Shown here: positions 3,035 through 20,460 of the stretch, piece by piece
Layout of the letters: the number at the start of each line of letters is the position of its first letter
How positions within the stretch are numbered: the stretch's first letter is position 1
Origin: Actinomycetes bacterium
GTDB taxonomy: Bacteria; Actinomycetota; Thermoleophilia; RBG-16-64-13
Direction: 5' to 3'
NCBI GenBank assembly: GCA_024637095.1
Contig: JAGXFV010000009.1
Coordinates: 7,549 to 71,548 of the forward strand
DNA: 64,000 nt
Position numbers and translations under genes: made by a program
The notes under the pieces: model-generated
What the model was told of the DNA's origin: nothing
Databases searched by the model: none
The model's input: the letters and a program-made list of their open reading frames with translations, nothing else

Positions 3035-3163
3035 TCCCGCTCGAAGTCCGGTGGAAGGCGCGACCGAGAGCCCGGCCGGAGTCGTTGCTATACTCTCTCG
3101 GTTGCGCCCAAGAGCGCTCCAATAGACCCGGTTTGTCCCTAGTTCCGGAGGTGCCCGCAGCAT

Positions 3164-4150: not shown

Positions 4151-5301
4151 TGGAAGTAAGGGAGAAAACGCAGGAGCAGACCGAGGAGATCCAGTATCTG
4201 CCCAAGCTGATCGCTTGGGAGGTCACCCGCTCGTGCAACCTGTCCTGCAGGCATTGCCGGGCTTCGGCAGAGAAGGGTCCCTACCCCGGCGAGCTGACCA
4301 CCTCCCAGGGCAAGGCTTTGGTGGACGATATCGCCGCCTTCGCCAATCCGGTGCTCATCATGACCGGTGGCGATCCGCTGATGCGCGAGGACATCTGGGA
4401 ACTGGCCGAGTACGCTATTCATCAGGCCGGCCTGCGCGTGGTGATGTCTCCGAACGGCACGTTGGTGACGCCGGAAGCCGCGCGCAAAATGAAGGAGGTG
4501 GGAATCCCCCGGATCTCTATCTCGATTGACTTCCCCACCGCCGAGATGCACGATGAGTTCCGCGGCGTTACCGGCGCGTTCGAAGGCGCGGTACGTGGAG
4601 TTAAGACCGCTCTCGAGGCCGGCGTCCAGGTGCAGATCAACTCCACCATCACCAAGCTGAACGTGGACTTCCTGGACGATCTGCTCAACCTCTCCAAGGA
4701 ACTTGGGGCTGTAGCCTTTCATCCCTTCCTGCTGGTTCCCACCGGTCGCGGCAAACAGCTGGGACCGGAAGAGCTTCCCCCGGAGGACTACGAGCGCACG
4801 CTCAACTGGGTGTACGAGCGGCAGAAGACCTCGGACATCTTTTTCAAGCCCACCGACGCCCCGCACTATCACCGCATCATGCGCCAGCGGGCCAAAGAGG
4901 ACGGCACCGATCTGTCCGAACTCAAGATGCATCCTCATTCACACGCCATGATGGCCGGCGGGGTGGGCAAGTCCCGCGGACACGGCGATATGGATTCTCA
5001 CTCCAAAGGCTGTCTCGCCGGGACCGGCTTTTGCTTCATCAGCCACACCGGCAAGGTGCAGCCCTGCGGCTACTTCGACGTGGCGGCAGGCGACGTCAAA
5101 CAGCAGCCATTCAGCGAGATCTGGCGCACATCCGAACTCTTCCGCGATCTGCGGGACGTATCCAAGCTCAAGGGCAAGTGCGGCATCTGTGAGTACCGCC
5201 GGGTTTGCGGGGGCTGCCGGGCGCGGGCCTACGAGGTAACCGGGGACTACCTGGCCGAGGAGCCCTACTGCGTGTATGAGCCGGTTCGCCAGGGTTGCTG
5301 A
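4150..5301 (+). CDS. ahbD: radical SAM/SPASM heme b synthase of the siroheme-dependent (Ahb) pathway
   Basis: IAWEVTRSCNLSCRHCRASA (CX3CX2C), GCLAGTGFCFISH, SPASM KCGICEYRRVCGGCRARAY; in hem operon. AhbC not fully excluded. Confidence 0.8.
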   Translation: MEVREKTQEQTEEIQYLPKLIAWEVTRSCNLSCRHCRASAEKGPYPGELTTSQGKALVDDIAAFANPVLIMTGGDPLMREDIWELAEYAIHQAGLRVVMSPNGTLVTPEAARKMKEVGIPRISISIDFPTAEMHDEFRGVTGAFEGAVRGVKTALEAGVQVQINSTITKLNVDFLDDLLNLSKELGAVAFHPFLLVPTGRGKQLGPEELPPEDYERTLNWVYERQKTSDIFFKPTDAPHYHRIMRQRAKEDGTDLSELKMHPHSHAMMAGGVGKSRGHGDMDSHSKGCLAGTGFCFISHTGKVQPCGYFDVAAGDVKQQPFSEIWRTSELFRDLRDVSKLKGKCGICEYRRVCGGCRARAYEVTGDYLAEEPYCVYEPVRQGC

Positions 5302-6956: not shown

Positions 6957-8048
6957 GTGAACTCCGGCCGCGTCTACGTCGTCGACACCAACGCCCTCCT
7001 CAACGATCCGGAAGTGCTTTATTTCTTCTCTGGATCGGAGGTGGTGGTGCCCGCCGCCGTGCTCAAAGAACTGGATCACCTCAAGCGCCGCGGTAAAGAT
7101 CGACGCATCCGCTATCACGGACGCAAGGCCACCCGGCTGCTCTTCGAAGCCTCCCAGCATGGCCGCCTGGTCGATGGGGTTCCCCTCGGCAATGGTTCAA
7201 CTCTGCGCGTCGAGTCCAAAGGTGATTTCGAAGATGCCCCCGTGGACCTCGACCTGGAGCGCACGGACGACCTGATTCTCGCCCACGCCTGGGCGATCAA
7301 CCGGCGGCCCTTGGTGCGAGCGACCCTGGTCACCAACGACCTGAATATGCTGCTGCGTGCTGAGGCGATGGGGATCGATGCCTACCGGTTCGAGGGGAAG
7401 CTGGACCGGCTGCACCAGCAAGAGAGGGGGCTTCTCGAAAGGGCCCGCGAGCGCCGATGGACGCTGCTCTTCGCTTTTCTCGCGCTCCTCTTCCTGTCGT
7501 CGACCGCCTATCTGTACGTAACCCGGCCGGCCCAGGTGAATGTGGCCACCCTGCCTCAGGTGGACGACTCCTCACTGCTCCAGAGTCTTGGCATAGCTCC
7601 GTCGATACTGGAGGACTACTATCGCGGTCGGATTCGAGAGGACGAAGAGGATCTGGCCGCACACATCAACCTGGGGAACGTGCTCTTTGATCAGGGAGAG
7701 TTTCTGCAGGCGGTGGAGCACTATCGCACGGCTCTTCAGCAGGAACCGGACAACATGAGCGTGCTGACCGACACGGGGATCGCCCTCATGGAACTGGGCC
7801 ACAACCAGGAAGCCGTCGTCACCCTGAATAGGGCCGTGGGTCTCGCTCCCAGCGACAGCCTGATCAGCTACAATTTAGGGCTGGCCCATGCCTTGGGAGG
7901 CAACAGCGAAGAGGCGATCAGAAGTCTGGATAGGGCGGTCAGGCTCGCGGAAGAACAACAATTCGCCCGCTTTCCCCTGGAAGAGGCAAAACGGCTGATC
8001 GAGGACTTGCGGACCGGCAACAGCAACGCGGTCCGACGGGACTCTTAG
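6957..8048 (+). CDS. PIN domain - transmembrane helix - TPR protein
   Basis: YVVDTNALL, VLKELDHLK, DDLIL, LVTNDLNMLLRA (PhoH-associated PIN type); TM WTLLFAFLALLFLSSTAYLY; TPR repeats after it; TGcTAACAT 6 nt before GTG (leaderless-type). Confidence 0.8.
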   Translation: MNSGRVYVVDTNALLNDPEVLYFFSGSEVVVPAAVLKELDHLKRRGKDRRIRYHGRKATRLLFEASQHGRLVDGVPLGNGSTLRVESKGDFEDAPVDLDLERTDDLILAHAWAINRRPLVRATLVTNDLNMLLRAEAMGIDAYRFEGKLDRLHQQERGLLERARERRWTLLFAFLALLFLSSTAYLYVTRPAQVNVATLPQVDDSSLLQSLGIAPSILEDYYRGRIREDEEDLAAHINLGNVLFDQGEFLQAVEHYRTALQQEPDNMSVLTDTGIALMELGHNQEAVVTLNRAVGLAPSDSLISYNLGLAHALGGNSEEAIRSLDRAVRLAEEQQFARFPLEEAKRLIEDLRTGNSNAVRRDS

Positions 8049-8067
8049 ACGGGCCCCTCGGGGGCAT

Positions 8068-8712
8068 CTACTCAACCACGCTGAGAGTCAGCCGCTCTCT
8101 TCCGGGGTCGGCGGAACCCACTTCTAGCAGCGCCTCGAGCGGATCGGCTCGGAAGACCGCGGCATCGGCGCCGGTTTCTGCGCTTTCGGAAAGCCGCCAA
8201 CCACGCTCTTCCAAGAATGCGGCAAATTCCTGTTGTCCCTCCTCTTGGTCGAGCGAGGAACCCCCGCCCACCTCCGCCGTGCCCACCGCGACCAAGCGGG
8301 CGGCCTCCTCTTCCGTGAGCGCATCTCCCGCCCGCAGTGAGGGCAGCCCCCCTGACTGCCAGGCGTATCCGCGGTCGGCCAGCCAGTTCACCATCGCCGC
8401 GAGTTCCGTGGCCACCTCACGCAGCGGTTCCTCTTGGGCGGGCGGCACGGCGTCTATCCCCGCGACCTTGACGTTGTCGACATAGGTGACGTCGCGCGTG
8501 AACCACCAGAGCATCGCCAACGCCAGGAGCAGGGCGGCGAATACCCGGAAGTAGACCGTCCAGCGCCGCGGGAGACGAAGCCCAAAGATTCGCCAGGCCG
8601 TGGTGTCGAGCCGAGGATCGTCGTGGGCGTCGGTGCCGCCGTTCTCGGGTGGGAGCGGATCCGCGAGTTCGTCCCGCCCCGGCGGGCGCGACTGAGCCGG
8701 CGTTCGGCTCAA
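8068..8712 (-). CDS. hypothetical membrane-anchored protein
   Basis: One TM helix (VFAALLLALAMLWW); start reassigned to TTG 8712 overlapping the stop of the upstream small gene. Confidence 0.55.
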   Translation of the reverse strand: MSRTPAQSRPPGRDELADPLPPENGGTDAHDDPRLDTTAWRIFGLRLPRRWTVYFRVFAALLLALAMLWWFTRDVTYVDNVKVAGIDAVPPAQEEPLREVATELAAMVNWLADRGYAWQSGGLPSLRAGDALTEEEAARLVAVGTAEVGGGSSLDQEEGQQEFAAFLEERGWRLSESAETGADAAVFRADPLEALLEVGSADPGRERLTLSVVE

Positions 8713-8897
8713 CGGGCTCCCGGGGGTTTTAGCAGATAGCCGCCGGAGATCGCCATGATGAAGCCCAGGACGGTGAAAATCAGAAACTGGACGATGTCGA
8801 ACTCGAGGAACTGGAAAACGGCCAGGGTCCACAGAGTGACCCCCCCCACCAGAAAGAGCAGTCCGACAAAATTCGGAAAGTCGAATCGCGATCCCAA
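8709..8897 (-). CDS. small two-TM membrane protein
   Basis: 62 aa, two hydrophobic helices, RBS GGGGAG. Confidence 0.6.
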   Translation of the reverse strand: MGSRFDFPNFVGLLFLVGGVTLWTLAVFQFLEFDIVQFLIFTVLGFIMAISGGYLLKPPGAR

Positions 8898-8939
8898 CTG
8901 AGCTCCCCCTGAGTATCCTCGGGCCTCGAAGGCATGATC

Positions 8940-9001
8940 TGGACAGCGTGTAGACGGGTGCTATAGTAGCAGACTGCAGGGGCTTGTGAAATCTCTTGCT
9001 T
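8940..9001 (+). promoter_or_regulatory. sigma70-type promoter of cytochrome operon with downstream Rex-like operator
   Basis: TGGACA(8940)-16 nt-TATAGT(8962) with extended TG; TTGTGAAATCTCTTGCTT at 8984-9001. Confidence 0.5.
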
Positions 9002-9161
9002 TAGCCATTGTAGCGGCGGACTTCTTACAAAGCTCCAGCAAATCTGGCACAATCGGAGCAAGTGAGGAGTCTCTTGTAGTCCGTGAAAACCCCTTCGCCG
9101 GGGTGGGCTGTCGAGGCCTCGGGATGTTCGCCCATCTCGTTGCTTACAATAGAAGGAGCTG

Positions 9162-9956
9162 TTGTTGTCTGACGGTGGGAGGAACCCGTTCCGTTTTCGC
9201 ATCTATGATGCGGGTGGGCGGGCCGTTCGGATACGTCTACGCTACTTGATCCTCGTGGGGTTTGGCCTGGCGGCGGTTGCCGTGGCCTTCCTTTTCGTGC
9301 CTTTTTACGTGACCAGCACTCCTCAGTTCTGTTCGAATTGCCACATCATGGACCCCTTCATCGCCTCTTGGGAGCAGTCCACCCACTCCAAGTTCGGATG
9401 CGCGGAATGCCATGTGCGCCCAGGAATCCTGAACCACGTGGTGAACCAGGCACGGGTGACGCAAAACATCTACGCCAACCTGGTTGGCGGCGCGGAGATG
9501 CCTGCGACGATTGCTTCTGCCAGCAACGAGAACTGCCTGCAGGCGGGTTGTCACAGCCTGAACCGGACCGCCTCCACGTCCGGGGATCTGCTCATACCGC
9601 ACTACGATCACGTCACCCTGCGCGGCCTGGAGTGTAAGCACTGCCACTTCAACGTGGTCCATACTCGGGATGGCGGAACCCCGGTGCCGCCGATGGGGGT
9701 CTGCGCCATGTGCCACGACGGAACGCAGGCCCCGAACGAGTGCGAGACCTGCCATCAGCAACCCCCGGCCGCGGAAGACGCGCACCCAGCCCTCGCCCTG
9801 GAGCAGCACGCAGAGTTCGCGCGAGGACGCGAGCAGGAGTGCTTCGACTGCCACCACGCCGACCAGTCCTTCTGCTCGCAATCCGGATGCCACGCGGAGG
9901 GCGAGTTCCAATCTCTGACTGGGCGCGAGAGAATTGAAGAGAGGTTTAACGAGTAA
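9162..9956 (+). CDS. NapC/NrfH-like membrane-anchored multiheme cytochrome c (6 CXXCH + 2 CX4CH)
   Basis: N-terminal TM, TSTPQFCSNCHIM (CXXCHXM), W..S.H...C..CH pattern; CLQAGCH and CSQSGCH. Confidence 0.88.
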   Translation: MLSDGGRNPFRFRIYDAGGRAVRIRLRYLILVGFGLAAVAVAFLFVPFYVTSTPQFCSNCHIMDPFIASWEQSTHSKFGCAECHVRPGILNHVVNQARVTQNIYANLVGGAEMPATIASASNENCLQAGCHSLNRTASTSGDLLIPHYDHVTLRGLECKHCHFNVVHTRDGGTPVPPMGVCAMCHDGTQAPNECETCHQQPPAAEDAHPALALEQHAEFARGREQECFDCHHADQSFCSQSGCHAEGEFQSLTGRERIEERFNE

Positions 9957-10942
9957 TGCGCTGGCCGGGTTTTCTCCGAATCTATGATGAGAGCGGGCGA
10001 CCTGTTCGGCTGCGGGTGCCTTACCTGATCTTGATCGCGGCCGCCATCGTGTTTATCCTGATCGCCGCCGTCTACCTGCCGGTGGCGATGACCTCCACTC
10101 CCAGCTTCTGCGGGAACTGCCACCTGATGCAGGAGCCGGTGGAACTGTGGGAAAACTCGACTCATGCCAACGTCAACTGCATTCAGTGCCACATCGATCC
10201 CGGTTTCATCAATACGCTCGAACATAAGCTGATGTCCTACAAGGAGATCTACGGGCAGTTCCTCGGCGACGGAGAAATGCCCGACGAGATCCACCTGCCC
10301 TCCAACGCGGCCTGCCTTCAGTGCCACTCCCTCGACCGGAACGTCTCGCCCGGCGGGGACATCAAGATTCCGCACCGCGAGCACGTGGAGATGCGCAATC
10401 TGCTCTGCGCCGACTGTCACTTCAACGTCGTCCACACCCGCCGGGCCATCTCGGGCGGCAATCCGCCCATGGACGTTTGCTACATGTGCCACGACGGTGA
10501 ACAGGCGCCCAACGAGTGCGAGACTTGCCACACCACCCCGCGGGAGGCTTTTGTCGAACAGGGCCATCCGGAGGATGCCTTGGAAAACCACGGCGCCCTT
10601 GCCCGGGAGCGCGTCGAGGACTGCTATCGGTGCCACTCTCAGGAGTCCGGGTTCTGCGAGGATTGTCACAGCCAGCCGCCGGCCACGCATGCCCGCGACG
10701 ACTGGCGTTACACCCACAGCGTCGAGGTCAATCGGGACGGGCGCAGCTCCTGCCAGGGTTGTCACGAAGAAGAGTTCTGCGAGAAATGCCACAGCGTCCA
10801 GCACCCGCCCAACTGGGTGAACCAGCACGGAGACTTCGCGCAGGGCGGCGGTGAAGCGTGTCTCGTCTGCCATGCACCGGGATTCTGCAACGACTGCCAC
10901 GACACCGAGGGAGTCGACACGAGAATAGGCCAGGCTCAGTAG
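9956..10942 (+). CDS. NapC/NrfH-like membrane-anchored dodecaheme cytochrome c
   Basis: N-terminal TM, TSTPSFCGNCHLM, 12 CXXCH; paralog of the preceding gene. Confidence 0.9.
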   Translation: MRWPGFLRIYDESGRPVRLRVPYLILIAAAIVFILIAAVYLPVAMTSTPSFCGNCHLMQEPVELWENSTHANVNCIQCHIDPGFINTLEHKLMSYKEIYGQFLGDGEMPDEIHLPSNAACLQCHSLDRNVSPGGDIKIPHREHVEMRNLLCADCHFNVVHTRRAISGGNPPMDVCYMCHDGEQAPNECETCHTTPREAFVEQGHPEDALENHGALARERVEDCYRCHSQESGFCEDCHSQPPATHARDDWRYTHSVEVNRDGRSSCQGCHEEEFCEKCHSVQHPPNWVNQHGDFAQGGGEACLVCHAPGFCNDCHDTEGVDTRIGQAQ

Positions 10943-10956
10943 AGCAAGGTCGGTCA

Positions 10957-11904
10957 ATGAAGGAGGAGACTTTGAAGACGGTGGCTGGGGCTGCCGGGGG
11001 GTTCGCGAAAGAATTCACGTGTCTTCGCCGGGGGGCGGGGTTCGGGATTCTCGCATTTATCCTGCTCGTTCTCCTCACTGGGGAGGTCGCCTGGGCGCAG
11101 GAGAGTGCGCAGTCGGCCGAGGGCGACAACGGCTGTTTGGTGTGCCATGGGCAGGAGTACTTGGGATCCGTCGAGGTGGACGGAGCGGCGCAGGATCTCT
11201 TCGTCGGTCCAGAGGCCTACGAGGAATCGGCGCACGGACTGCTGCCGTGCGCGTCGTGCCATATCGGATTCACCCACGATAACCCGCATCAGATGGTGAC
11301 GAACGCGGAGTTCTTCGCCGAAACGGCGCGCGAGGCGTGCCGCAATTGCCATGCCGATCAGTTTGAGATGTATCAGCAGAGCTATCACGGCGAGTTGAGC
11401 CGGGGAGGCGTCGCCGGGGGGGTCCTGGCCCCCGGCTGCACCGACTGCCACGGCATGCATCAGGTGCAGCGCGTCGATACGCTGGAATACCGTCAAGACA
11501 TTCAGCAAATCTGCGGGCAGTGCCATGGCGGGCGCACGGACACCTTCCTCGACACCTATCACGGCAAGGCCATTACCCTTGGGCGAGAGGCTTCGGCCAC
11601 CTGCGTGGATTGTCACGGTTCGCACTTCATCCTGCCAACCACCAACCCGATGTCCACGCTTTCGGAGGCCAATCACCTAGATACCTGCCAGACCTGCCAT
11701 CCCGATGCCGATGAGGGCTTCACTTCCTTCTTGGTGCATATTCAGCCCACCTCCACCGATGCTCCTTTGATCGTCTTCGCGGTGGCGATCTTCTACATCT
11801 CGATGATCGTTGTGGTCTTTGCCTTCGGGGGGATCCACACGCTTCTGTACATCTACCGGGGGCTCAAGAACGGTCTCTACTTCGGTAAAGGAGGTCACCA
11901 CTGA
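10957..11904 (+). CDS. heptaheme cytochrome c with C-terminal TM (CbcL-like c domain), copy 1
   Basis: Signal peptide ending AWA-Q, 7 CXXCH, C-terminal TM; start 10957-10981 uncertain. Confidence 0.88.
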   Translation: MKEETLKTVAGAAGGFAKEFTCLRRGAGFGILAFILLVLLTGEVAWAQESAQSAEGDNGCLVCHGQEYLGSVEVDGAAQDLFVGPEAYEESAHGLLPCASCHIGFTHDNPHQMVTNAEFFAETAREACRNCHADQFEMYQQSYHGELSRGGVAGGVLAPGCTDCHGMHQVQRVDTLEYRQDIQQICGQCHGGRTDTFLDTYHGKAITLGREASATCVDCHGSHFILPTTNPMSTLSEANHLDTCQTCHPDADEGFTSFLVHIQPTSTDAPLIVFAVAIFYISMIVVVFAFGGIHTLLYIYRGLKNGLYFGKGGHH

Positions 11905-12755
11905 TGGCGGCCGGCACCGACGCGCTCGAAGGGGTGCGCCTCGTCTACAGAAGATTCAGCGCCTTCCACAGGTTCAACCACTACCTGGTGATGATCAGCT
12001 TCTTCGGTCTGGTCCTCACCGGGATTCCGCTCAAGTTCAAGGACAGCCTCTGGGCCGAGTTTTTCATGGGCCTTATCGGCGGTGTTGAAGGGGCGGGATT
12101 CATCCACCGCGTGATGGCTGTGTTCAATTTCACGTATTTCTTCTTGGAAATGGGCTATATGTCCTGGTACGTGGCCGCCCGCAAGGGCCCCATTTTTGGT
12201 CCTGACTCCATAGTCCCGAGCAAGAAGGACTGGCAGGACATCAAAGGCATGTTTCGTTGGTTCCTAGGCAGGGGCCCCAAGCCGCGGTTCAACCGCTTCA
12301 CCTACTGGGAGAAGTTCGACTTCTGGGCCCTCCTGGCGGGAACCTTTCTCATCGGTGGAACCGGCCTCATGATGTGGTTCCCGGAGTTCACCACTTCGTT
12401 CCTACCCGGGGTTTCACTCAACGTGGCGCTGGTGCTCCATTCCAACGAGGCCTTCCTGGCCACCGGGGTGATCTTCATCTTCGTGCACTTCTTCTCGGCG
12501 CACGGACGCCCCGAGTCCTTCCCCGCCGATGAGGTGATCTTTAGCGGCAGCCTGCCTCTCGATCACTACATCGCGGACCGGCCCGCCGAATACGAGAACC
12601 GTCTGCGGGCGGGGACTCTCGATCAGGTGGTGCGTCCCGCGCCGACGGGCCCCATGACTCGCGTGAACTCGTGGCTCATGGTCGTATTCAGCGCGGTTGC
12701 GCTGTTTGCCGCCACGTACACCATGTTGCTGGTGGTGTGGCCGCTTCTGTTCTAG
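11904..12755 (+). CDS. di-heme cytochrome b (FdnI/HydC/CbcL b-domain family), copy 1
   Basis: RFSAFHRFNH, IHRVMA, RFTYWEKFDFW, LHSNEAFLA...VHFF; four His ligands. Confidence 0.88.
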   Translation: MAAGTDALEGVRLVYRRFSAFHRFNHYLVMISFFGLVLTGIPLKFKDSLWAEFFMGLIGGVEGAGFIHRVMAVFNFTYFFLEMGYMSWYVAARKGPIFGPDSIVPSKKDWQDIKGMFRWFLGRGPKPRFNRFTYWEKFDFWALLAGTFLIGGTGLMMWFPEFTTSFLPGVSLNVALVLHSNEAFLATGVIFIFVHFFSAHGRPESFPADEVIFSGSLPLDHYIADRPAEYENRLRAGTLDQVVRPAPTGPMTRVNSWLMVVFSAVALFAATYTMLLVVWPLLF

Positions 12756-12780
12756 CTTTGCAATCCGCCTTTAGAAGGAT

Positions 12781-13839
12781 GTGAGTAGGATCTTGCAGTC
12801 GAATACGGGGGAGAAGATGAATATGACTGGGGTGGGCCTACCGCGGCCCCGGCGCCACGTTGGGAGGGCCGCGGCCTCGGCCACGCTCCTGGCCGCCTTG
12901 ATGCTTGGGCTTTTTGTCGGCGTGGCCTCGGCCCAAGATGTCGAGGGCTGCCTGATCTGCCACGGTGATCCGAATTTCACCGATCCCACGCCGGCCGAGA
13001 ATCAGGAGGGCGACGACCTCTCTCTCTATGTCGACTCGGAAGTCTTCTTGAGTTCCGTGCACAAAGAACTGAAGTGCTCCGATTGTCACGAGGGCTTCCT
13101 CCTGACCATCCCCAACCATCAATTGGATATGGACAAGGATTTCCGGCAGGTGGCAATCGAAGCCTGCGAGGGCTGCCATCAGGAAGCCTTCCAGGAGTAC
13201 CAGACCTCGGATCACGCCCAGCGCTTCTACGAGGACCAGGCGGGGCCGATCTGCATCAGTTGCCACGGCTCGCACGCCATTCGCCGGGTGAACCTGGGCG
13301 AGGAGTCGGCCGACTTCAAGATGAGCATGGCCCGTGACTCCTGCGGCCAATGCCACGCGGACAAGTTCGAGCAGGCGAGCCACGAGTTCCACTTCAAAGC
13401 ACTCTCGCTCGGGTACGAGCGGGCGGCGACCTGTTTCGACTGCCACGGCTTTCACGACAACCTGGCTCTGACCTCCGGCGAACCGGAGACGGTCGAGGCC
13501 TGCCGTCAGTGTCACCCCGGCGCGAACGAGGGCTTCACCTACTTCCAGATGCACCTGGAGGAGGGCTTCCAGAACGCCTGGTGGGGTGTGCGCGTCGTCT
13601 ACTACTTCTTCAGTACCTTGCTGGTGGTGGTGCTCGTAACCGGCATCGCCTACACCACGGTCCATTTCCAGAAGGAAACCCGGACCATCCTCGGCGTATT
13701 CGGTCGAGGCACGGGACGCCTCTTCGGCTTCATCCGTCAGCTCGAGGAAGAGTCCATGAGAGAGCGCGAGGGCCGGCCGAACGGCCCCGAGGACCAATCC
13801 AAAGATGAACCTGAGAACGACGACAGGGGGATGCTGTAA
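12781..13839 (+). CDS. heptaheme cytochrome c with C-terminal TM (CbcL-like c domain), copy 2
   Basis: Signal peptide ending ASA-Q, 7 CXXCH spaced as in copy 1, C-terminal TM; start may be ATG 12817. Confidence 0.88.
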   Translation: MSRILQSNTGEKMNMTGVGLPRPRRHVGRAAASATLLAALMLGLFVGVASAQDVEGCLICHGDPNFTDPTPAENQEGDDLSLYVDSEVFLSSVHKELKCSDCHEGFLLTIPNHQLDMDKDFRQVAIEACEGCHQEAFQEYQTSDHAQRFYEDQAGPICISCHGSHAIRRVNLGEESADFKMSMARDSCGQCHADKFEQASHEFHFKALSLGYERAATCFDCHGFHDNLALTSGEPETVEACRQCHPGANEGFTYFQMHLEEGFQNAWWGVRVVYYFFSTLLVVVLVTGIAYTTVHFQKETRTILGVFGRGTGRLFGFIRQLEEESMREREGRPNGPEDQSKDEPENDDRGML

Positions 13840-14609
13840 TGGCCGAGGCGACCTACCCGGCCACGGGTGAGGAACGGCTGGAGGGAGCGGCGGTTGCCGA
13901 GACGAATGTCGAGGGACGTGACTACTATGTCCGCTTCTCGCCCTACCACCGGTTGAGCCACTTCGTCATGATGACCACCTTCATCGGCTGCGCCCTCACC
14001 GGCCCGCCCCTGAAGTACAGCTATGACTTCTGGGCTCAGGCGATGATGGGCTTCTGGGGCGGGGTGGAGAACGCCGGCCTGATCCATCGCGTAATGGCCG
14101 GTTTCATGGTCGCCGACTTCGTCATCCACGTGCTCTACCTTGGCTACCACATCGGGCTCAAGAAGGCCAAGATCTTTGGGCCCGACTCGATCTTCTTCTG
14201 GAAGAAGGATCTGACCGACGCCCTGGGCATGGTCAAGTGGTTCTTCGACCGCGGCCCGCGACCGAGGTTCGAGCGCTTCACCTTTTGGGAGAAGTTCGAT
14301 TACTGGGCGGTCTTCTGGGGGATCGCGATGATCGGCACTTCGGGCTTCGCGCTCTGGTTTCCCACGGTGACCAGCACGCTCGTGTCTGGTATCTTCCTCA
14401 ACGTTGCGCGAATCATCCACGGCGACGAGGCCATCTTGGCCATTGGCTGGATCCTCTTCGTCCACCTTTACAACTCACACCTACGCATGAACGTCTTTCC
14501 GATGGACCCGGTCATCTTCACCGGGCGTATGCCCGTCGAGCACGTGAAGCACGACAAGGCGGCCTGGTACGACCGCCTGGTCCGGGAAGGAAAGATCAAG
14601 CCGGAATGA
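13839..14609 (+). CDS. di-heme cytochrome b (FdnI/HydC/CbcL b-domain family), copy 2
   Basis: RFSPYHRLSH, IHRVMA, RFTFWEKFDYWAVFWG, IHGDEAILA...VHLYNSH. Confidence 0.88.
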   Translation: MAEATYPATGEERLEGAAVAETNVEGRDYYVRFSPYHRLSHFVMMTTFIGCALTGPPLKYSYDFWAQAMMGFWGGVENAGLIHRVMAGFMVADFVIHVLYLGYHIGLKKAKIFGPDSIFFWKKDLTDALGMVKWFFDRGPRPRFERFTFWEKFDYWAVFWGIAMIGTSGFALWFPTVTSTLVSGIFLNVARIIHGDEAILAIGWILFVHLYNSHLRMNVFPMDPVIFTGRMPVEHVKHDKAAWYDRLVREGKIKPE

Positions 14610-15508
14610 TGGGGAGCATGCCGCAAAAAAATGGCCTCGCGCCCTCGGATGGGCGTGCGCAGACGGAGCGGTGGCGGGCTTTGCTTATGCTGGTGATCCT
14701 GGCGCTCGCGGTCGTCCTGCTGGCGGGCTGTGGGGAGGATGAACCCTCGAGCGCCGAGAGCTTTGGCGAGCGCCTGCTCGAAGCAGAGCAGGAGCCGGGG
14801 GTGGCGGCCGAGCCGGCCAGCTTCATCAGCCTCTGCGCTAACTGCCATGACCGGCTTGACCGGGAACTCGACTGGCGGCGGGAGCGCAAGTTGGTGTTCA
14901 GCCATCCCGCCCACTTCGCCCAGGGCATACGCTGCCAGGCGTGTCACGAAGAGTTCCCGCACAAGCCCGGGCTAACGCTGCACGTGGAAGTCGAAACCTG
15001 CTTCGTGTGTCACGGGACACTTCACGGGCAGGGAGGAGAGTTGGCTTCGACTGACTGCGATACCTGCCACACTCCCGACATCGCCCCGGTCACCGACGAC
15101 CACAGCCTGTCCAACTGGCGTCTGGCGGAAGGGCCGGAACGAGCCCTCCATGCGGAGAAGGCTACTCAGCAGCGCCTGTACTGCAAGATGTGTCACCAGG
15201 AAACATACTGCCAGGACTGCCATCAGGTGGAGATGCCGCATCCCGAGGACTGGCAGGCCGCGCACATGCCGGCTGCCCAGGAAAACGGGAGGGCTTGTGA
15301 CCAGTGCCATACGCCGGAGTACTGCAACGCTTGCCACCACGCTGCTTTCGAGCAGCCGCCGGACTGGCGCCGGCAGCATCGTACGGTGGTGGGTGATGTG
15401 GGAATCGATGCCTGTTTTGAATGTCATGACCCCACTTTCTGCTCGAACTGCCACGTTCGCGTCGGTCAGGACAGGGGTGTTCTAGGGGGGCCGGGAAACG
15501 GGGGCTAA
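14609..15508 (+). CDS. decaheme cytochrome c lipoprotein
   Basis: Lipobox LLAG-C, 10 CXXCH; start reassigned to ATG overlapping upstream TGA. Confidence 0.88.
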   Translation: MGSMPQKNGLAPSDGRAQTERWRALLMLVILALAVVLLAGCGEDEPSSAESFGERLLEAEQEPGVAAEPASFISLCANCHDRLDRELDWRRERKLVFSHPAHFAQGIRCQACHEEFPHKPGLTLHVEVETCFVCHGTLHGQGGELASTDCDTCHTPDIAPVTDDHSLSNWRLAEGPERALHAEKATQQRLYCKMCHQETYCQDCHQVEMPHPEDWQAAHMPAAQENGRACDQCHTPEYCNACHHAAFEQPPDWRRQHRTVVGDVGIDACFECHDPTFCSNCHVRVGQDRGVLGGPGNGG

Positions 15509-15526
15509 GTGAAAGAGGAGGACCCC

Positions 15527-16369
15527 ATGAAGACCCCTTGGCGTGGCCGCGGGGCAGAGCTCGTGCCGGGAGTCTTTCTCCTGGCGGCGTTGCTGGCCCT
15601 TGCCCTCTTCTCGCTCGGCTGCGGGGAAGATGTTGAGGCTCCGAGCAGCGCCACCGAGCAGGCGGAAACGGCCCTGGCGGTGCCGGTCCGGAGCGAGCAA
15701 TGCCTGTCCTGCCACACCGATTTTGCCGAGCGGATCTCAAACGAGAACCAGCGGGTCTTCTCTCACGAACTCCATCTGGAGCAGGAGATCGACTGCAGCG
15801 CCTGTCATTCGGACGTGGGGCACGACGGTGCCCCGATTCACCATCCGAGCTCCTGCCAGGATTGCCACGGAATCACCATGCCGCACCCCGGCGGTTACAT
15901 AAATGAGCACGGCGAGCAGGTGCTAGACGAGGGTACCGACGTCTGCACTCGTTGCCACAATGTCCATCTGCACTGTCAGGCATGCCACGGCATCGAGATG
16001 CCGCATCCTGCCGAATGGGAGCAGAAGCACGGTGAGTTGGCGGTGCCGGAGCTGGAATCCTGCCGGCAGTGCCACCAGTCGGACTACTGCCTGCAGTGCC
16101 ATCCGGTGGAGATGCCGCACCCCGGGGATTGGATCAAGACCCATGGCCTGCCCGTGGTGGACCAGGGATCCGCGACCTGCACTAGATGCCACGAGACCAA
16201 TCTTTGCGTCAGCTGTCACGGTATGCCCATGCCGCACCCGGAAGATTGGGGTACCGGTCACCCTGCCGTGGCGGCTGAGAAGCGGGCCGAATGCCTGCTT
16301 TGCCACACCGAGCAGGACTGCGCTGATTGTCACGATATCCATCAGACCCACGGGAAGGATGGTGTGTGA
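15527..16369 (+). CDS. undecaheme cytochrome c lipoprotein with MPHP repeats
   Basis: RBS AGGAGG, lipobox SLG-C, 11 CXXCH, four CXXCH-x3-MPHP units. Confidence 0.88.
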   Translation: MKTPWRGRGAELVPGVFLLAALLALALFSLGCGEDVEAPSSATEQAETALAVPVRSEQCLSCHTDFAERISNENQRVFSHELHLEQEIDCSACHSDVGHDGAPIHHPSSCQDCHGITMPHPGGYINEHGEQVLDEGTDVCTRCHNVHLHCQACHGIEMPHPAEWEQKHGELAVPELESCRQCHQSDYCLQCHPVEMPHPGDWIKTHGLPVVDQGSATCTRCHETNLCVSCHGMPMPHPEDWGTGHPAVAAEKRAECLLCHTEQDCADCHDIHQTHGKDGV

Positions 16370-17319
16370 TGCGCTCATCAATCAGTTCCCGCAAGATTCG
16401 CTTCGGGCTATTGCTGGTTGTTGGATTGCTCCTGGTCTTGGGGGGTGCCGTGCTTAGGGACTCTCCGGATACCATGGCGCAGGAGGAATCGGAACCCGAG
16501 CGCACCCGCACGGACCTTCGTGGACTCCCGGCGACCGGTGAGCCAACCGGCGCGAGCGGTGCGCCGCGAGAATCCGGGGGCGAGCCTTTCCGCACCTGCG
16601 AGGCGTGTCACCCCGACTTCCTGCAGATGCCCCCCCAATCAGCGGATCTGATCTTCTCCCACCAGACACATCTGGACGAAGACGTGGAATGCGCCACCTG
16701 CCACAACCCTCCTCTGGGTCACTTCGGCAAGCCGGCCGCCTTGATGAGCACCTGCCTCTCCTGCCACGAGGGGCAGACCGCCCCCAACGAGTGTGAGAAC
16801 TGCCATCGCAAGTTGGACGAGATCGCGCCTGACCTGGACGAACCCATCGTGCACCTCGACCCAGACGCTTCCAAGCGGCAGAGCTGCGACAAATGCCACG
16901 ACGTCGAAGTCTGGTGCGAGCGCTGTCACGGCGTGGACATGCCCCACCCCGACACCTGGACGGGCGCCCACGGAGAGGTCGCCTTGGCCGAGGCGCAGGT
17001 ATGCGAGAAGTGCCACCAATCCAGGGACCCCGCGTACTGTGTGGAGTGTCATGGGGTGGCCATGCCTCATCCGGCTTACTGGTATTCGGGCCATGGGGAC
17101 ATCGCCTCGGACAACCGGGATTCCTGTGGTCAGTGCCATCTGGAGGCGCCCCAGTACTGCAACGAGTGTCACCACGCGGGCTTCTCGCCTACCGAAGATT
17201 GGCTGCCAGAACAGCACGGTCAGGTCGTTGAGGATCGTGGGGAGGCCACCTGCCTTGTTTGCCATGAGGAGGAGTTCTGCGCGCAGTGCCACACTGCGGG
17301 ACGGTTTGTTAAGGGATGA
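16369..17319 (+). CDS. dodecaheme cytochrome c, N-terminal signal/anchor
   Basis: Hydrophobic N-terminus, 12 CXXCH; ATG overlaps upstream TGA. Confidence 0.88.
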   Translation: MRSSISSRKIRFGLLLVVGLLLVLGGAVLRDSPDTMAQEESEPERTRTDLRGLPATGEPTGASGAPRESGGEPFRTCEACHPDFLQMPPQSADLIFSHQTHLDEDVECATCHNPPLGHFGKPAALMSTCLSCHEGQTAPNECENCHRKLDEIAPDLDEPIVHLDPDASKRQSCDKCHDVEVWCERCHGVDMPHPDTWTGAHGEVALAEAQVCEKCHQSRDPAYCVECHGVAMPHPAYWYSGHGDIASDNRDSCGQCHLEAPQYCNECHHAGFSPTEDWLPEQHGQVVEDRGEATCLVCHEEEFCAQCHTAGRFVKG

Positions 17320-17402
17320 TCCTGGAGAGGCCGGCTTCGCCAGCCTCTCCAGAACCAATATGCCATTCAAGTTTCGCGGGACAGAATAAAGGAGGTGAAT
17401 GC

Positions 17403-18344
17403 ATGATTAAACTGCGAAATCAGAGCCTGCTGCTCGCATCCGCTCTGGTCCTTCTGCTGGCCGCACTGGTGTTCGTCGCCGGGTGCCAGGAAGCCGACGA
17501 TGAACCGGAAGCCACGGACACCGAGGCGACGGAGGCAACCGACACCGAGGCGACGGAAGGGACAGAGGACACAGAGGGTGAGGTAACCGACACCACCACG
17601 GCCGTTGCCGATTCGACGGAGACAACCGAGGCCGGTGAGTCTCTGGCCCCCGTCTCCGAATCGTTTCAGACCTGCGCCGACTGCCACTCGGACTTCAACC
17701 AGTTCCTGGCCGACAGTACTGTGCTCACCCCGAACTTCAGCCACGCTTTGCACCTGAATCAGGGGTTTGAGTGCGAGACCTGCCACGTCGTGCCGACGCA
17801 CGAGCCGGATATGATCAACCAACCGCCGATGCTCAAGTGCTTCTCCTGCCACGGTCAGGAGGCGGACGCCAGTGCGCCAGGCGAGTGTAGCGTCTGCCAT
17901 CCGGCGGACTTCCCACTGGTTCCGGCCAATCACACCGAACCCAACTGGTTGCCACCGGCAACTCCGGCCGAACTGATCGCGACGGTTGACTCACAGCACT
18001 CCGGCGTAGCCACACAGGACCGGGCTTACTGCGAGATGTGCCACGCTCAGCAGTTCTGCCAGGATTGCCATAACACCGAGATGCCACATGCGAGTGACTG
18101 GACACAGGTCCACTCCACGACGGTGCGCGACGCGGGCGATCCTCAGCAGTGTTTGCGCTGTCATCCGCAGGAGTTGCTATGCAACACCTGCCACCACCCC
18201 GGCTTCGAAGCGGGGGGCGGTGCGTGGACGCAACAACACCCGCCGATAGTGCGCAATGCCGGGGCGGAGGCCTGCTTCCAGTGCCACAATCCTTTGACTT
18301 GCGCGCGCTGCCACGTGACCGGCGAATATCAGTCCTTCGACTGA
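17403..18344 (+). CDS. decaheme cytochrome c lipoprotein with acidic T/E linker
   Basis: RBS GGAGGT, lipobox VAG-C, EATDTEATEATDTEATEGTEDTE linker, 10 CXXCH. Confidence 0.9.
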   Translation: MIKLRNQSLLLASALVLLLAALVFVAGCQEADDEPEATDTEATEATDTEATEGTEDTEGEVTDTTTAVADSTETTEAGESLAPVSESFQTCADCHSDFNQFLADSTVLTPNFSHALHLNQGFECETCHVVPTHEPDMINQPPMLKCFSCHGQEADASAPGECSVCHPADFPLVPANHTEPNWLPPATPAELIATVDSQHSGVATQDRAYCEMCHAQQFCQDCHNTEMPHASDWTQVHSTTVRDAGDPQQCLRCHPQELLCNTCHHPGFEAGGGAWTQQHPPIVRNAGAEACFQCHNPLTCARCHVTGEYQSFD

Positions 18345-18371
18345 TGGTGAGGTAAGGAGAGAGGGATGGAG

Positions 18372-18406
18372 TGGGGCGGCGCCACAAGGCGCCGCCCCAT
18401 TTCTTT
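18372..18406 (+). terminator. intrinsic terminator of cytochrome operon
   Basis: TGGGGCGGCGCC-ACAA-GGCGCCGCCCCA perfect 12-bp stem followed by TTTCTTT; lies between convergent genes. Confidence 0.85.
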
Positions 18407-18410
18407 GCGG

Positions 18411-19391
18411 TTAGCCCTGGCGCGCCTTCTGCTGCTTCATCTCATACAGGCTGGAATCAGCCTGCTGCAATAGTTCTTCCGTCTCCAGACCGTCCGAGGG
18501 GCATGACGCGGAGCCCTGGCTCACCTGGAGCGATATCAAGGTATGGTCGGTCTTCAACTTGGTCTTGCTCAGAGAGTCCGAAATGCGGTCGCTCACCAAG
18601 CGGACCACGTCCACCTCTGTTTCGGGCATCAGGATCATGAACTCGTCGCCCCCAAAGCGGAACGAGAGATCGACGTCGCGCACGTTGGAACGGATGACTG
18701 CGGCCACATTCGAGAGGGCGGCGTCACCGACGGCATGCCCGTAGGTGTCGTTGATCCACTTGAGGTTGTCTGCATCGAGCATCAGCAGCGAGAAGGGGTG
18801 GCGGTAGCGCTTATACATCTCAACCTGTAGCTCCAACTGCTGTACCAGGTATCTGCGATTGAAGAGCCCGGTCAGGGGATCCGTGTGCGCCAGCCGATTG
18901 AGTTCGGTGATAGAGAGGTCGTGGTAGCTCTCGGTGGCCGAGGCGGCAATGCCCTGCAAACAGGTCCGGAGTCTCAGCACCAGGGAGAGCAGTTCGTGAT
19001 CTTCCCGTCGGAGGGCCTGGGCCAGGAGCGACCAGATAGACTCCTCGAGCGCGAGGGTGTGGCGGACCAGCGCCTGCATCCCCTCCTTGCCCGAAGAGAC
19101 CGACGCCCCCAGAATCGCGGCGCGCTCGTAGTAGCGGCCCCCCGGGGAGAACTCCTGCATTGCCTCCTCGTCCTCGAGGGCTCGAGCCATACCTTCCACG
19201 AGTTCTACCGAGGCACTGATGCTTTCCTGCGTTGGGAAGTTCTCCAGGGTGGAAAGGTCGTCGACATCGCTGATGATCCGGCCAAGCCAACTCTTGGTCA
19301 GCTGGAGCTTGTTCTGATCGAGGAGCCGGCGGGTCTTGTCGAAGAGCGGGCGCGAGGGAGACTGATCGCTCTCCCTCAGCAACTCGTCCAT
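18411..19391 (-). CDS. diguanylate cyclase (GGDEF) with N-terminal helical domain
   Basis: AHTDPLTGLFNRR, LKWINDTYGHAVGD, RDVD I-site, RFGGDEF; start placed at ATG 19391. Confidence 0.9.
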   Translation of the reverse strand: MDELLRESDQSPSRPLFDKTRRLLDQNKLQLTKSWLGRIISDVDDLSTLENFPTQESISASVELVEGMARALEDEEAMQEFSPGGRYYERAAILGASVSSGKEGMQALVRHTLALEESIWSLLAQALRREDHELLSLVLRLRTCLQGIAASATESYHDLSITELNRLAHTDPLTGLFNRRYLVQQLELQVEMYKRYRHPFSLLMLDADNLKWINDTYGHAVGDAALSNVAAVIRSNVRDVDLSFRFGGDEFMILMPETEVDVVRLVSDRISDSLSKTKLKTDHTLISLQVSQGSASCPSDGLETEELLQQADSSLYEMKQQKARQG

Positions 19392-19585
19392 TTTCCCGAA
19401 ATCTTCTACCAAGACGAAACTCTTTTCTTCCAGGAGTACGATTAGGACTACTATAATCCAACCGGTCGCCAGAGTAAACTTCAGCACTACTCTTTCGCCG
19501 CTTGTTCGTTCGAGGGCTCCCTCAAGCCCTTCCTCCTTATTGCCGATGGCCTGTCATTAGAAGCCCTAAGGCGGAAAGTGAGGCC

Positions 19586-20419
19586 ATGTCGGCATCTGGC
19601 TCCTTGGCCACCATTGGTGTGGCGGAACTCCTGCAGATCGGTGCCCTTTTTCGAAAGATGGGCTCACTGGTATGCACCTTCAACGACGACCGCTCGATTG
19701 CCGTGTACCTGCAGGATGGATACTTGAGCGGGCTGACCGACACCGGCGCGGTGTGGCAGCTTGGCGATCTTTTGGAGTGCATGGGGCTGCTCACTGAGGC
19801 GGAGAAGTTCCGACTGCTGGCCGAAGCCCGGCTTCACGGCAAACGACTGGGTCAGTTGCTGCTGGAGGAGGGAGTCCTTTCTCGCGCCGAGATGGAAGGC
19901 CTGCTCCGGCGACTGATCATGCAGTCGCTCCTCTACGCGGTCGAGAACGAGGCCGATGGCTGGTTCGAACTGGAACTGGGCGCGGTGTCTCAGACCTCGG
20001 TGATGTTTCCGATCAACGATTTCTTGATCGAAATAACATCGGCCGTCGATGAACTGGAGCGTTTGCGGTCGGTGCTCGGGCCTGGGGGTGGCCGCGTCAG
20101 ATTGAGTTCGGTGGCGGACTTGACGGATCACGTGCACGCTCTGCCCTATCGGCTGGTCCAAGTGCTGGCTCACGTCGACGGAGACAAGACTCCCATGGAA
20201 GTGGCGGCGTCTTCGCCCTTCTCGCCGTCGGAAACGCTGAGGCTCCTGTCGGAGTTGGGCCGGCTGAGGCTGGTGGTCTGGGCGGCGGCGGTCGGCGAAC
20301 CGGAAGCCGAGGTCGTCTTCTTTCTCGAGCCCACCGGCGAAAAGCCGCCCGCGCGCCGCGCAAAAGATAGGTCTTCGCCGGTGAGCCCTCTGATAGAATT
20401 GCGCCGGCGGCTGCCGTAG
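19586..20419 (+). CDS. DUF4388/PATAN-like domain protein
   Basis: SGSLATIGVAELLQ..., QLGDLL, KRLGQLLLEEG, WFEL pattern typical of DUF4388. Confidence 0.7.
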   Translation: MSASGSLATIGVAELLQIGALFRKMGSLVCTFNDDRSIAVYLQDGYLSGLTDTGAVWQLGDLLECMGLLTEAEKFRLLAEARLHGKRLGQLLLEEGVLSRAEMEGLLRRLIMQSLLYAVENEADGWFELELGAVSQTSVMFPINDFLIEITSAVDELERLRSVLGPGGGRVRLSSVADLTDHVHALPYRLVQVLAHVDGDKTPMEVAASSPFSPSETLRLLSELGRLRLVVWAAAVGEPEAEVVFFLEPTGEKPPARRAKDRSSPVSPLIELRRRLP

Positions 20420-20460
20420 TATCGTCCGCCACTCTGTCCCGCCTCATTCCTGGGGGTCAC

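Follow-up and report, generated by a model that had tools for sequence, protein, structure and literature searches.

A ten-gene multiheme cytochrome operon of an Actinomycetota genome, candidate membrane half of a Gram-positive extracellular electron transfer chain

How electrons pass across the Gram-positive wall is an open question, and the outline of their export through a thick wall, by cells devoid of an outer membrane, is known from only a few Firmicutes and one cultured actinobacterial order. A 64,000-nucleotide stretch of contig JAGXFV010000009.1 from the Actinomycetes assembly GCA_024637095.1 (hereafter the window, meaning this whole stretch) bears on it. Between window positions 9162 and 18344 of the forward strand, its list of open reading frames (ORFs) contains ten co-directional, abutting genes, g1 to g10, that encode a cytochrome cassette of ~77 hemes. 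What might such a cassette do in a host without recognizable outer-membrane genes? The initial annotation described it as a complete quinol-to-cell-surface wire. Our analysis leans, a little beyond an even chance, toward a narrower reading, in which the operon would form the cytoplasmic-membrane half of a Gram-positive-type extracellular electron transfer (EET) chain; the cassette is probably not a complete, self-contained wire.

The junctions between the ten genes are either overlaps of 1-4 nt or gaps of 14-83 nt, when starts are chosen where a Shine-Dalgarno-like GGAGG or GAAGGAG stands upstream. With this choice, the starts of g3, g5, g8, and g10 are revised to 10957, 12817, 15527, and 17403, respectively; AGAGGAGG stands 5' of the g8 ATG at 15527, AAGGAGGTGA 5' of the g10 ATG at 17403, and g1 starts at a TTG with GAAGGAG 5 nt 5' of it. 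A sigma-70-like promoter candidate (8940-8967, forward strand) displays both hexamers, a 16-nt spacer, and a TG extension with 10 of 12 matches; it is a consensus match only, the scan of positions 8000-19600 returning 4 sites against 1.7 expected. At the other end, a consensus terminator scan reports no hit 3' of g10, and direct folding revealed the intrinsic terminator (18373-18406, forward strand), made up of an 11-bp perfect G+C stem, a 4-nt loop, and a U-rich tail. The hairpin stem covers 18373-18398, with 16 pairs in the minimum free energy structure, and the U-rich tract runs to 18406; folding of 18335-18420 yields -43.1 kcal/mol (z -4.1), and none of 200 shuffles is as stable. The proposed ten-gene coupled operon with one promoter and one terminator is matched by ten abutting ORFs, a promoter-like consensus match, and a folded hairpin.

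Motif counts in the ten proteins agree with those first given, 75 CXXCH plus 2 CX4CH and no CXXCK: 6 CXXCH and the 2 CX4CH in g1, 12 CXXCH in g2, 7 in both g3 and g5, none in g4 and g6, and 10, 11, 12, and 10 in g7, g8, g9, and g10. All six frames of the window contain 78 CXXCH motifs, 75 of which fall within the g1-g10 reading frames, a concentration far above chance. The absence of a porin and of a catalytic subunit in or beside the operon holds for the families scanned: neither the ten genes nor the ten neighbouring genes that were scanned match the molybdopterin, NiFe, or NrfA families, and the cassette has no PF02335 match.

Two heptaheme-c plus cytochrome-b pairs occupy the middle of the operon, as had been noticed from the sequence. 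In module A, g3 (10957-11904) encodes a heptaheme c subunit with a signal peptide and a C-terminal transmembrane helix, and g4 (11904-12755; 283 residues) a FdnI/HydC-like cytochrome b. In module B, g5 (12817-13839) has the same features as g3, and g6 (13839-14609; 256 residues) encodes the cytochrome b. Both b subunits score above the PF01292 (cytochrome b561) cut-off of 30.1 bits (32.4 bits for g4, 32.6 bits for g6), and the formate dehydrogenase gamma family TIGR01583 reports 36.8 (g4) and 39.1 bits (g6), under its own cut-off. A 1-nt overlap joins each c gene to its downstream b gene. The modules are paralogous, with 45% identity between g4 and g6 and 34% between g3 and g5. A crude hydropathy scan returns one helix in g3 and three in g4, which is an under-call. 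In 15 homologs of g3, every one of the 7 motifs is conserved, and so are the distal His residues and a His of the C-terminal helix; His22, 26, 68, 179, 195, and 200 of g4 are invariant in 20 sequences. The g5 orthologs of two other Actinomycetota metagenome-assembled genomes (MAGs), L001 and L002, are 72% and 69% identical, respectively. Among solved structures, the g3 family profile best matches a 278-residue protein titled only "Cytochrome c" (PDB 28pb_A, E 4.6e-22), over the first four hemes.

To which family do these pairs belong? An alignment of g4 homologs, scanned against one genome per species, returned 80 loci; at 78, the b domain has a multiheme c gene immediately upstream or is fused to a multiheme c part; g4 and g6 are 40-50% identical to those b-domains. 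Among the 95 b-domain copies of the 80 loci, 69 are preceded in frame by at least 3 CXXCH, hence fused, and 26 are not, c and b being in one ORF at most non-actinobacterial loci. The Geobacteraceae/Desulfuromonadales clade comprises 22 copies, 19 of which are fused 9-heme proteins of 612-661 residues. The b part of such fusions from Geomonas (L009, L018) and Trichlorobacter thiogenes (L026) is 44-45% identical to g4 over 275-289 residues, and the c part of the same fusions displays 28-30% identity over ~284 residues; these 9-heme ORFs are called CbcL by architecture alone, not against the GSU0274 sequence. CbcL has been described as a single polypeptide with a nine-heme c domain and a HydC/FdnI-like b, six helices in all, and the published heme range of the CbcL/MtoC/MtrH family is 3-23. 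CbcBA was also considered as the identity of the g3-g6 pairs and was dropped, the Geobacteraceae homologs being fused 9-heme proteins with the CbcL architecture. Since CbcB and CbcL b-domains share no sequence homology according to the CbcBA paper, and g4 and g6 are homologous to CbcL-type fusions, the pairs are filed under CbcL/MtoC/MtrH. Judged by homology, g3+g4 and g5+g6 are split, 7-heme members of this family.

A b-domain tree was obtained by a quick IQ-TREE search, its rows being the best non-overlapping high-scoring segment pairs (HSPs) of at least 200 residues, with shorter HSPs dropped. In this tree, g4 falls inside an all-Actinomycetota clade of 15 rows (support 99) in which split and fused 7-heme forms are both present, and g6 groups apart, with only the L001 and L002 copies (support 100); the joining of the g6 clade with L044 and L058, a possible long-branch artefact, was left unused. 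Fused 7-heme CbcL-type ORFs of 583-635 residues are encoded in Thermoleophilia-labelled MAGs (L004:2347-4146, L007:8933-10837, L013:5847-7595), with split copies alongside. Because fused ORFs occur alongside split copies in these MAGs, fusion or fission took place within the Actinomycetota clade. Table 1 of Zhong and Shi (2018) counts 0 CbcL homologs in Actinobacteria.

Prediction of the complex between g4 and mature g3 (residues 48-315), with 2 hemes, returned ipSAE values of 0.80, 0.82, and 0.80, and 0.00 for the best of 3 controls. Of 80 solved complexes, 58 attain the ipSAE mark used, as do 2 of 110 mismatched pairs; this calibration is only rough here, with custom alignments and a ligand. 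The runs agree on at least 90% of the contacts (partner pLDDT 80-81), and in the predicted interface the g3 C-terminal helix (residues 270-308) packs on g4 helices 157-206. The model thus supports binding of the two subunits.

Upstream of these modules, g1 (9162-9956; 264 residues) and g2 (9956-10942; 328 residues) had been taken as two NapC/NrfH-like anchored cytochromes with 8 and 12 hemes. Both indeed score above the cut-off of PF03264, the NapC/NirT N-terminal region (49.2 bits for g1 and 63.5 for g2; cut-off 24.1). They are 47% identical and exhibit a single N-terminal hydrophobic helix (residues 28-46 in g1, 21-39 in g2), and the two CX4CH motifs of g1 align to canonical CXXCH motifs of its paralog g2 with a 2-residue gap. 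Residues 16-163 of g2 align to NrfH (2j7a_C, E 7.5e-9) with the four NrfH heme motifs in register, and the heme 1 motif CXXCHXM, which we take to define NrfH, is common to g1, g2, and 2j7a_C. The equivalog families nevertheless stay below their cut-offs: the NrfH equivalog TIGR03153 reports 60.4 bits for g1 and 55.1 for g2 against 134.2, while the NapC and TorC equivalogs report 24-34 against 311 and 26-34 against 478 bits, respectively. Given these sub-cut-off scores and their 8 and 12 hemes, g1 and g2 are best classed, from their sequences, as extended members of the NapC/NirT/NrfH superfamily without being NrfH proper. The C-terminal half of g2, which forms an extension to the NrfH-like part, is ~30% identical to g7-g10. 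Among the Atlas look-alikes of g2 are NapC/NirT clusters of Bacillota, 383-386 residues long (scores 0.92-0.94), the one lead toward a relationship with ImdcA and PdcA of Thermincola.

The four remaining genes encode the exported multihemes with 10, 11, 12, and 10 motifs, three of them with lipoboxes, a description that stands except that one lipobox is atypical. The decahemes g7 (14606-15508) and g10 (17403-18344) are predicted lipoproteins with canonical lipoboxes, LAGC and VAGC, respectively. The 11-heme g8 (15527-16369) is a probable lipoprotein, its SLGC being atypical at position -3 and replaced by LAGC in the L001 ortholog. The 12-heme g9 (16369-17319), secreted or signal-anchored, has no lipobox, either here or in its L001 and L002 orthologs. 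Between anchor and first heme, low-complexity acidic stretches of 34-62 residues are found, 34 residues long in g7 and 62 in g10, where the tether is rich in Thr and Glu. These four proteins share 30-34% pairwise identity and are composed of di-heme repeats often followed by MPHP..W; g8 has four such repeats, with the motif after each. About 10 conserved non-motif His are available for the 12 hemes of g9, which fits bis-His hemes of the electron-transfer type better than a catalytic site. Weak Pfam matches to MtrC/MtrF domains II/IV stay at 19.7-28 bits, below the cut-off of 30. A search with the g7-g10 profile yields 4874 representatives at E<=0.001; the number falls to 2126 at E<=1e-10 and to 222 at E<=1e-30. 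Many contain several matched stretches, in proteins of up to 3949 residues, and 28 stretches are matched in one protein of that length. Given such recurrence in P0296 and other matched proteins, the di-heme unit of g7-g10 is in wide use as a building block of giant multihemes.

The host genome (G000; 2.47 Mb in 49 contigs, 96.55% complete, 0.21% contamination) contains no 16S rRNA in its assembly, and its proteins have their named relatives in MAGs that bear the labels Thermoleophilia, Actinobacteria, Actinomycetes, or Actinomycetota. Searches for Omp85 (PF01103), LpxC (PF03331), OEP/TolC (PF02321), and LptD (PF04453) return 0 matches in this genome, and the same searches are positive in 7, 4, 7, and 2, respectively, of 14 named control genomes. 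The host without an outer membrane, as initially proposed, is thus what its genes describe at this completeness, the diderm controls having scored. The monoderm call follows from the absence of outer-membrane genes, that is, from gene absence and not from microscopy. Besides 42 SLH domain matches, the genome encodes two polysaccharide pyruvyl transferases and two Lgt lipoprotein transferases. On genomic grounds, the host would therefore be a monoderm with SLH-based wall anchoring. Cytochrome maturation is represented by CcmF/CcmC-like PF01578 genes; ResB, of system II, was not found in the genome. Menaquinone would be made by the futalosine pathway, for which two PF02621 genes are present, one of them within the window (~32463-33335; G000:C25:40020-40799; E 3.5e-62).

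If the cassette stops at the membrane, are wall cytochromes encoded elsewhere? The claim of a complete quinol-to-cell-surface wire is not supported at this point, the cassette having three predicted lipoproteins and no wall anchor, and the recognizable surface cytochromes being located on other contigs. On contig C45, an 857-residue protein with 9 CXXCH (G000:C45:45837-48410; L105:5838-8411) aligns to OcwA (6i5b_A) with an E-value of 7.8e-62 over residues 36-570 (535 residues), followed by a Big_1 domain and three C-terminal SLH domains. OcwA is reported as the characterised cell-surface terminal reductase of Thermincola potens; its in vitro substrates include nitrite and hydroxylamine, and its structure is related to that of NrfA-type enzymes. 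Contig C21 encodes a 6-heme SLH protein, the only PDB sequence match of which at E<=0.01 is an SLH protein, with no OmcS- or CwcA-like match; contig C49 contains a 3-heme ORF overlapping an SLH match, and C5 a further NapC-like 7-heme protein. On contig C16, a 712-residue ORF with 27 CXXCH adjoins a 310-residue, 7-heme lipoprotein-like gene (G000:C16:4060-7042; L102), and the same contig, including 15582-20455, encodes a pyruvyl transferase and several SLH-domain ORFs.

A synteny search, suggested together with the initial annotation, shows how far the cassette extends beyond this genome. All ten genes occur in the same order in L001 and L002, with 41-87% identity, L001 having an extra 15-heme gene downstream. 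The Thermoleophilia-labelled MAGs L003-L008, L011, and L013 encode related clusters totalling 57-74 hemes, in which a NrfH-like gene is accompanied by a 7-heme module of CbcL type, either split or fused, and by 3-4 additional multihemes. For g9, 69 homologs were retrieved, ~48 of them at 50% identity or more, and every named one belongs to an Actinobacteria or Thermoleophilia MAG. Counted at E<=1e-20 in samples of 401 genomes each, g9 relatives are found in 11 genomes of the phylum sample and 56 of the class sample. The latter comprise 12 of 60 genomes of the own family plus G000 itself, and 43 of 79 genomes of a second family at only 35-40% identity; the other ten families of the class sample (261 genomes) have none. 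Within the family, 12 of 61 genomes, across 5 of 19 genera, encode g9 orthologs. OcwA-like genes occur in 5 of these 61 genomes, all among the 12 that bear g9 and in 0 of the 49 others, these genomes being kin and not independent. The cassette-OcwA link is thus suggestive.

Assembled into a mechanism, these components would work as follows. On the outer side of the membrane, as many as four modules, of two kinds with no relation to each other, would oxidise menaquinol: g1 (8 hemes) and g2 (12 hemes), each held on one N-terminal helix, and two modules in which a four-helix diheme b (g4 or g6) receives the C-terminal helix of a heptaheme c (g3 or g5). Electrons would then proceed to the four 10-12 heme paralogs g7-g10, three of which would be anchored by their lipobox Cys on the acidic tethers and would reach the wall zone. 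From there, they would be handed to SLH wall-anchored cytochromes encoded elsewhere, notably the OcwA homolog, and would end on an acceptor that lies outside the cell or is hardly soluble, for instance Fe(III)/Mn(IV) minerals, humics, or another cell acting as partner. Gene content, families, paralogy, cassette conservation, the lack of outer-membrane markers, and the genes for maturation and anchoring are observed; quinol oxidation, the order of transfer, its outward direction, and the acceptor are what we infer. The quinol-linked electron-export role first attributed to the operon is plausible.

Several observations weigh against this membrane-half reading. None of the ten cassette proteins contains an SLH, sortase, or other wall-anchoring domain, and surface exposure of g7-g10 would follow from tether length only. 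The AlphaFold2 (AF2) model of g9, from a 46-row alignment, is poor (pLDDT 61.3, pTM 0.38); it displays a helix at residues 8-29 followed by a low-confidence stretch of ~45 residues, and lends no support to a linear heme wire. Structure prediction, also proposed with the initial annotation, gave a g3-g4 complex at ipSAE 0.80-0.82 and a poor g9 monomer. No OcwA homolog at E<=1e-20 is found in 7 of the 12 cassette-bearing genomes of the family, including G463 (100% complete) and G532 (99%), so that OcwA is not an obligatory partner. A preprint calls the class Thermoleophilia Gram-negative from old staining data. Published members of the CbcL/MtoC/MtrH family come from Fe(II) oxidisers as well as Fe(III) reducers, and family membership consequently leaves the direction of flow undecided. 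Lastly, the host is, from its gene content, not a strict anaerobe, since it encodes two heme-copper oxidases and a locus that is possibly alternative complex III-like. In this locus, on contig C4 (61924-65744, L103; 36630-45720), a 759-residue protein with four cbb3-type monoheme domains and a c7 part is adjoined by a 1024-residue ORF with a weak molybdopterin match, with CcmF/CcmC-like genes and Lgt nearby.

The membrane-half reading can be carried further. The four entry modules would then serve different potentials, and g7-g10, stacked with their ~43 hemes, would self-assemble into a potential-tuned wire across the wall up to the SLH-OcwA protein, dispensing with porin, pilus, and polymerising OmcS-type filament. 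Geobacter ImcH, CbcL, and CbcBA offer the same division by potential, but here the modules would be co-transcribed. We hold this extended form to be improbable.

Could the electrons flow inward instead? Extracellular Fe(II), a cathode-like mineral, or a syntroph would then feed the wall cytochromes and g7-g10, and the CbcL-type and NrfH-type modules would pass the electrons to menaquinone or the oxidases, in the service of lithotrophy or acetogenesis. In published accounts, CbcL/MtoC/MtrH homologs are also present in Fe(II) oxidisers without a distinguishing sequence feature, and a biocathode-dominating actinobacterium with multiheme cytochromes has been proposed to accept electrons from the cathode. 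The host encodes an acetyl-CoA synthase of the CdhC family, two putative selenocysteine formate dehydrogenases, and two heme-copper oxidases, and its source is probably a cold-spring metagenome. Yet RuBisCO is found in 0 of 2 genomes of the genus, and the reduction of menaquinone by Fe(II) is energetically uphill. Published work makes OcwA, the sole characterised relative in the genome, a terminal reductase. We regard inward flow as an unlikely competitor.

A second alternative makes the operon an electron-distributing hub on the outer side of the membrane for soluble acceptors (nitrite, hydroxylamine, sulfur or metalloid oxyanions, oxygen through the oxidases) instead of insoluble extracellular ones, by way of reductases encoded elsewhere. 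NrfH/NapC-type proteins classically supply periplasmic reductases, and g1 and g2 have NCBIfam matches to NrfH, TorC, and NapC. The lipobox proteins are tethered to the membrane, four molybdopterin enzymes and two oxidases are encoded elsewhere in the genome, and OcwA, which acts on nitrite and hydroxylamine in vitro, has a structural relation to NrfA-type enzymes. However, no catalytic subunit is found in or beside the operon and CXXCK is absent, most hemes have a conserved distal His, and ~43 hemes in four carriers would be far beyond the needs of known feeders of soluble reductases. Moreover, CbcL and OcwA, the nearest characterised relatives of the bc modules and of the genome's SLH cytochrome, respectively, are reported to act in EET. 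A soluble-acceptor hub is, on balance, rather improbable. Least convincing, and very improbable, is that the ~77 hemes serve mainly as a membrane-bound electron store (capacitor), redox buffer, or oxidative-stress protection in a facultative host at an oxic-anoxic interface, and not as a conduit: 43 hemes on four tethered carriers, oxidases and anaerobic pathways in one genome, and the adjoining GGDEF signalling gene would suit it, but four quinol-interacting modules and a conserved ten-gene order suggest throughput.

Around the operon, a heme biosynthesis cluster lies directly upstream (window 1475-5301) and comprises a uroporphyrinogen methylase/HemD fusion, HemB, and a radical-SAM/SPASM protein, for which an AhbD-like role is a guess. 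A PF01578 HemX/CcsA-like gene is located just before the window (G000:C25:5091-5921). Downstream (window 18411-20419), the operon terminator is faced by a convergent gene for a GGDEF diguanylate cyclase, itself followed by a DUF4388 gene; both are possible regulators. Elsewhere in the genome, two of the four molybdopterin enzymes have an in-frame TGA and are possibly selenocysteine formate dehydrogenases; these and the CdhC-family gene are at C15:19959-21233, C14:5049-6647, and C15:31683-32141. TGA-containing molybdopterin enzymes together with an acetyl-CoA synthase gene suggest a Wood-Ljungdahl pathway. Regarding habitat, two near-complete matches to the stretch are cold-spring metagenomes, which may be its source, and a soil metagenome (X3) contains a relative that is ~95% identical; data sets that share only small portions of the stretch were left aside. 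None of the matching data sets is recorded as RNA. Two further data sets were not used as evidence: a metatranscriptome of the same study (X20; 10 million letters) has no match to the stretch, and a soil run (X7), presumed to be RNA, has small contigs at least 99% identical over 22 of 30 bins, which may be DNA and show no transcription.

How new is this architecture? The initial annotation did not recognise it as a described system, and this is only partly so: the parts are of CbcL/MtoC/MtrH and NrfH types and follow the logic of Thermincola and Carboxydothermus, while the combination and the split CbcL are new. The principle and every protein family are thus known. According to a preprint, 8 of 19 Thermoleophilia MAGs encode CbcL homologues as well as surface multihemes. 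No report of the ten-gene arrangement, the split CbcL, or the OcwA-SLH fusion was found in the accessible literature, supplementary tables being outside this search; the supplements that could list homologs are those of PMC6295460, 10.1101/2022.03.26.485925, PMC9686372, and PMC7829351. With a compact and conserved set of genes, from Actinomycetota of soil and springs, the cassette adds to what is known of export across thick walls. The split, two-subunit CbcL-type oxidoreductase may lend itself better to expression and structure determination than the fused protein of Geobacter, and the natural OcwA-SLH fusion indicates how a terminal reductase is fixed to the wall. If functional, the system would make this Actinomycetota lineage a participant in iron and humic cycling and would provide markers for Gram-positive EET, which current gene catalogues are reported to under-detect.

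Compared with known systems, g1 and g2 resemble NrfH, NapC, and CymA in their single N-terminal helix and in a tetraheme core in register with 2j7a_C, including CXXCHXM; they differ in their 8 and 12 hemes, against 4-5, and in the absence of an NrfA, NapAB, or Tor partner in the cassette. The g3-g6 modules share with CbcL (GSU0274) of Geobacter sulfurreducens an external multiheme c and a HydC/FdnI-like diheme b, without iron-sulfur, flavin, Mo, or NiFe partner. In contrast with CbcL, each module here consists of two genes and 7 hemes instead of one fused polypeptide and 9 hemes, the module is duplicated in one operon with copies in separate clades, and the host has no outer-membrane markers. 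Menaquinol:cytochrome c oxidoreductase activity of the CbcL type, for low-potential acceptors, is documented by genetic and electrochemical evidence in Geobacter only, in the published accounts. CbcBA of G. sulfurreducens is reported to have a separate four-helix diheme b and a separate 7-heme c with a C-terminal-helix anchor and possible heme-b ligand, as seen here; however, its GSU0593/0594 operon is sigma-54-regulated, whereas no sigma-54 activator is found among the ten genes scanned on the flanks of the cassette.

The MtrCAB and Pcc porin-cytochrome conduits also use decaheme-class carriers, but the cassette has no β-barrel partner and the genome no Omp85, LptD, TolC, or LpxC. Closer in envelope are the Gram-positive Carboxydothermus ferrireducens (OmhA, SmhA-C) and the actinobacterium Parvivirga hydrogeniphila, for both of which Fe(III) reduction has been demonstrated in culture, and which possess an OcwA-related terminal cytochrome and putative quinol-oxidising multihemes. 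They belong to another class or phylum, their genes are scattered or clustered otherwise, and the split CbcL pair is unreported in the published passages. The same logic in a wall-bearing monoderm is found in the ImdcA-PdcA-CwcA-OcwA chain of Thermincola potens and T. ferriacetica, a likeness drawn from a published model in which a membrane decaheme oxidises quinol, a "periplasmic" decaheme relays the electrons, and wall and surface cytochromes finish the path. Here, the OcwA homolog is instead fused to Big_1 and three SLH domains on another contig, and the cassette contains, beyond the Thermincola plan, two bc modules of CbcL type; of its four carriers, three are lipoproteins.

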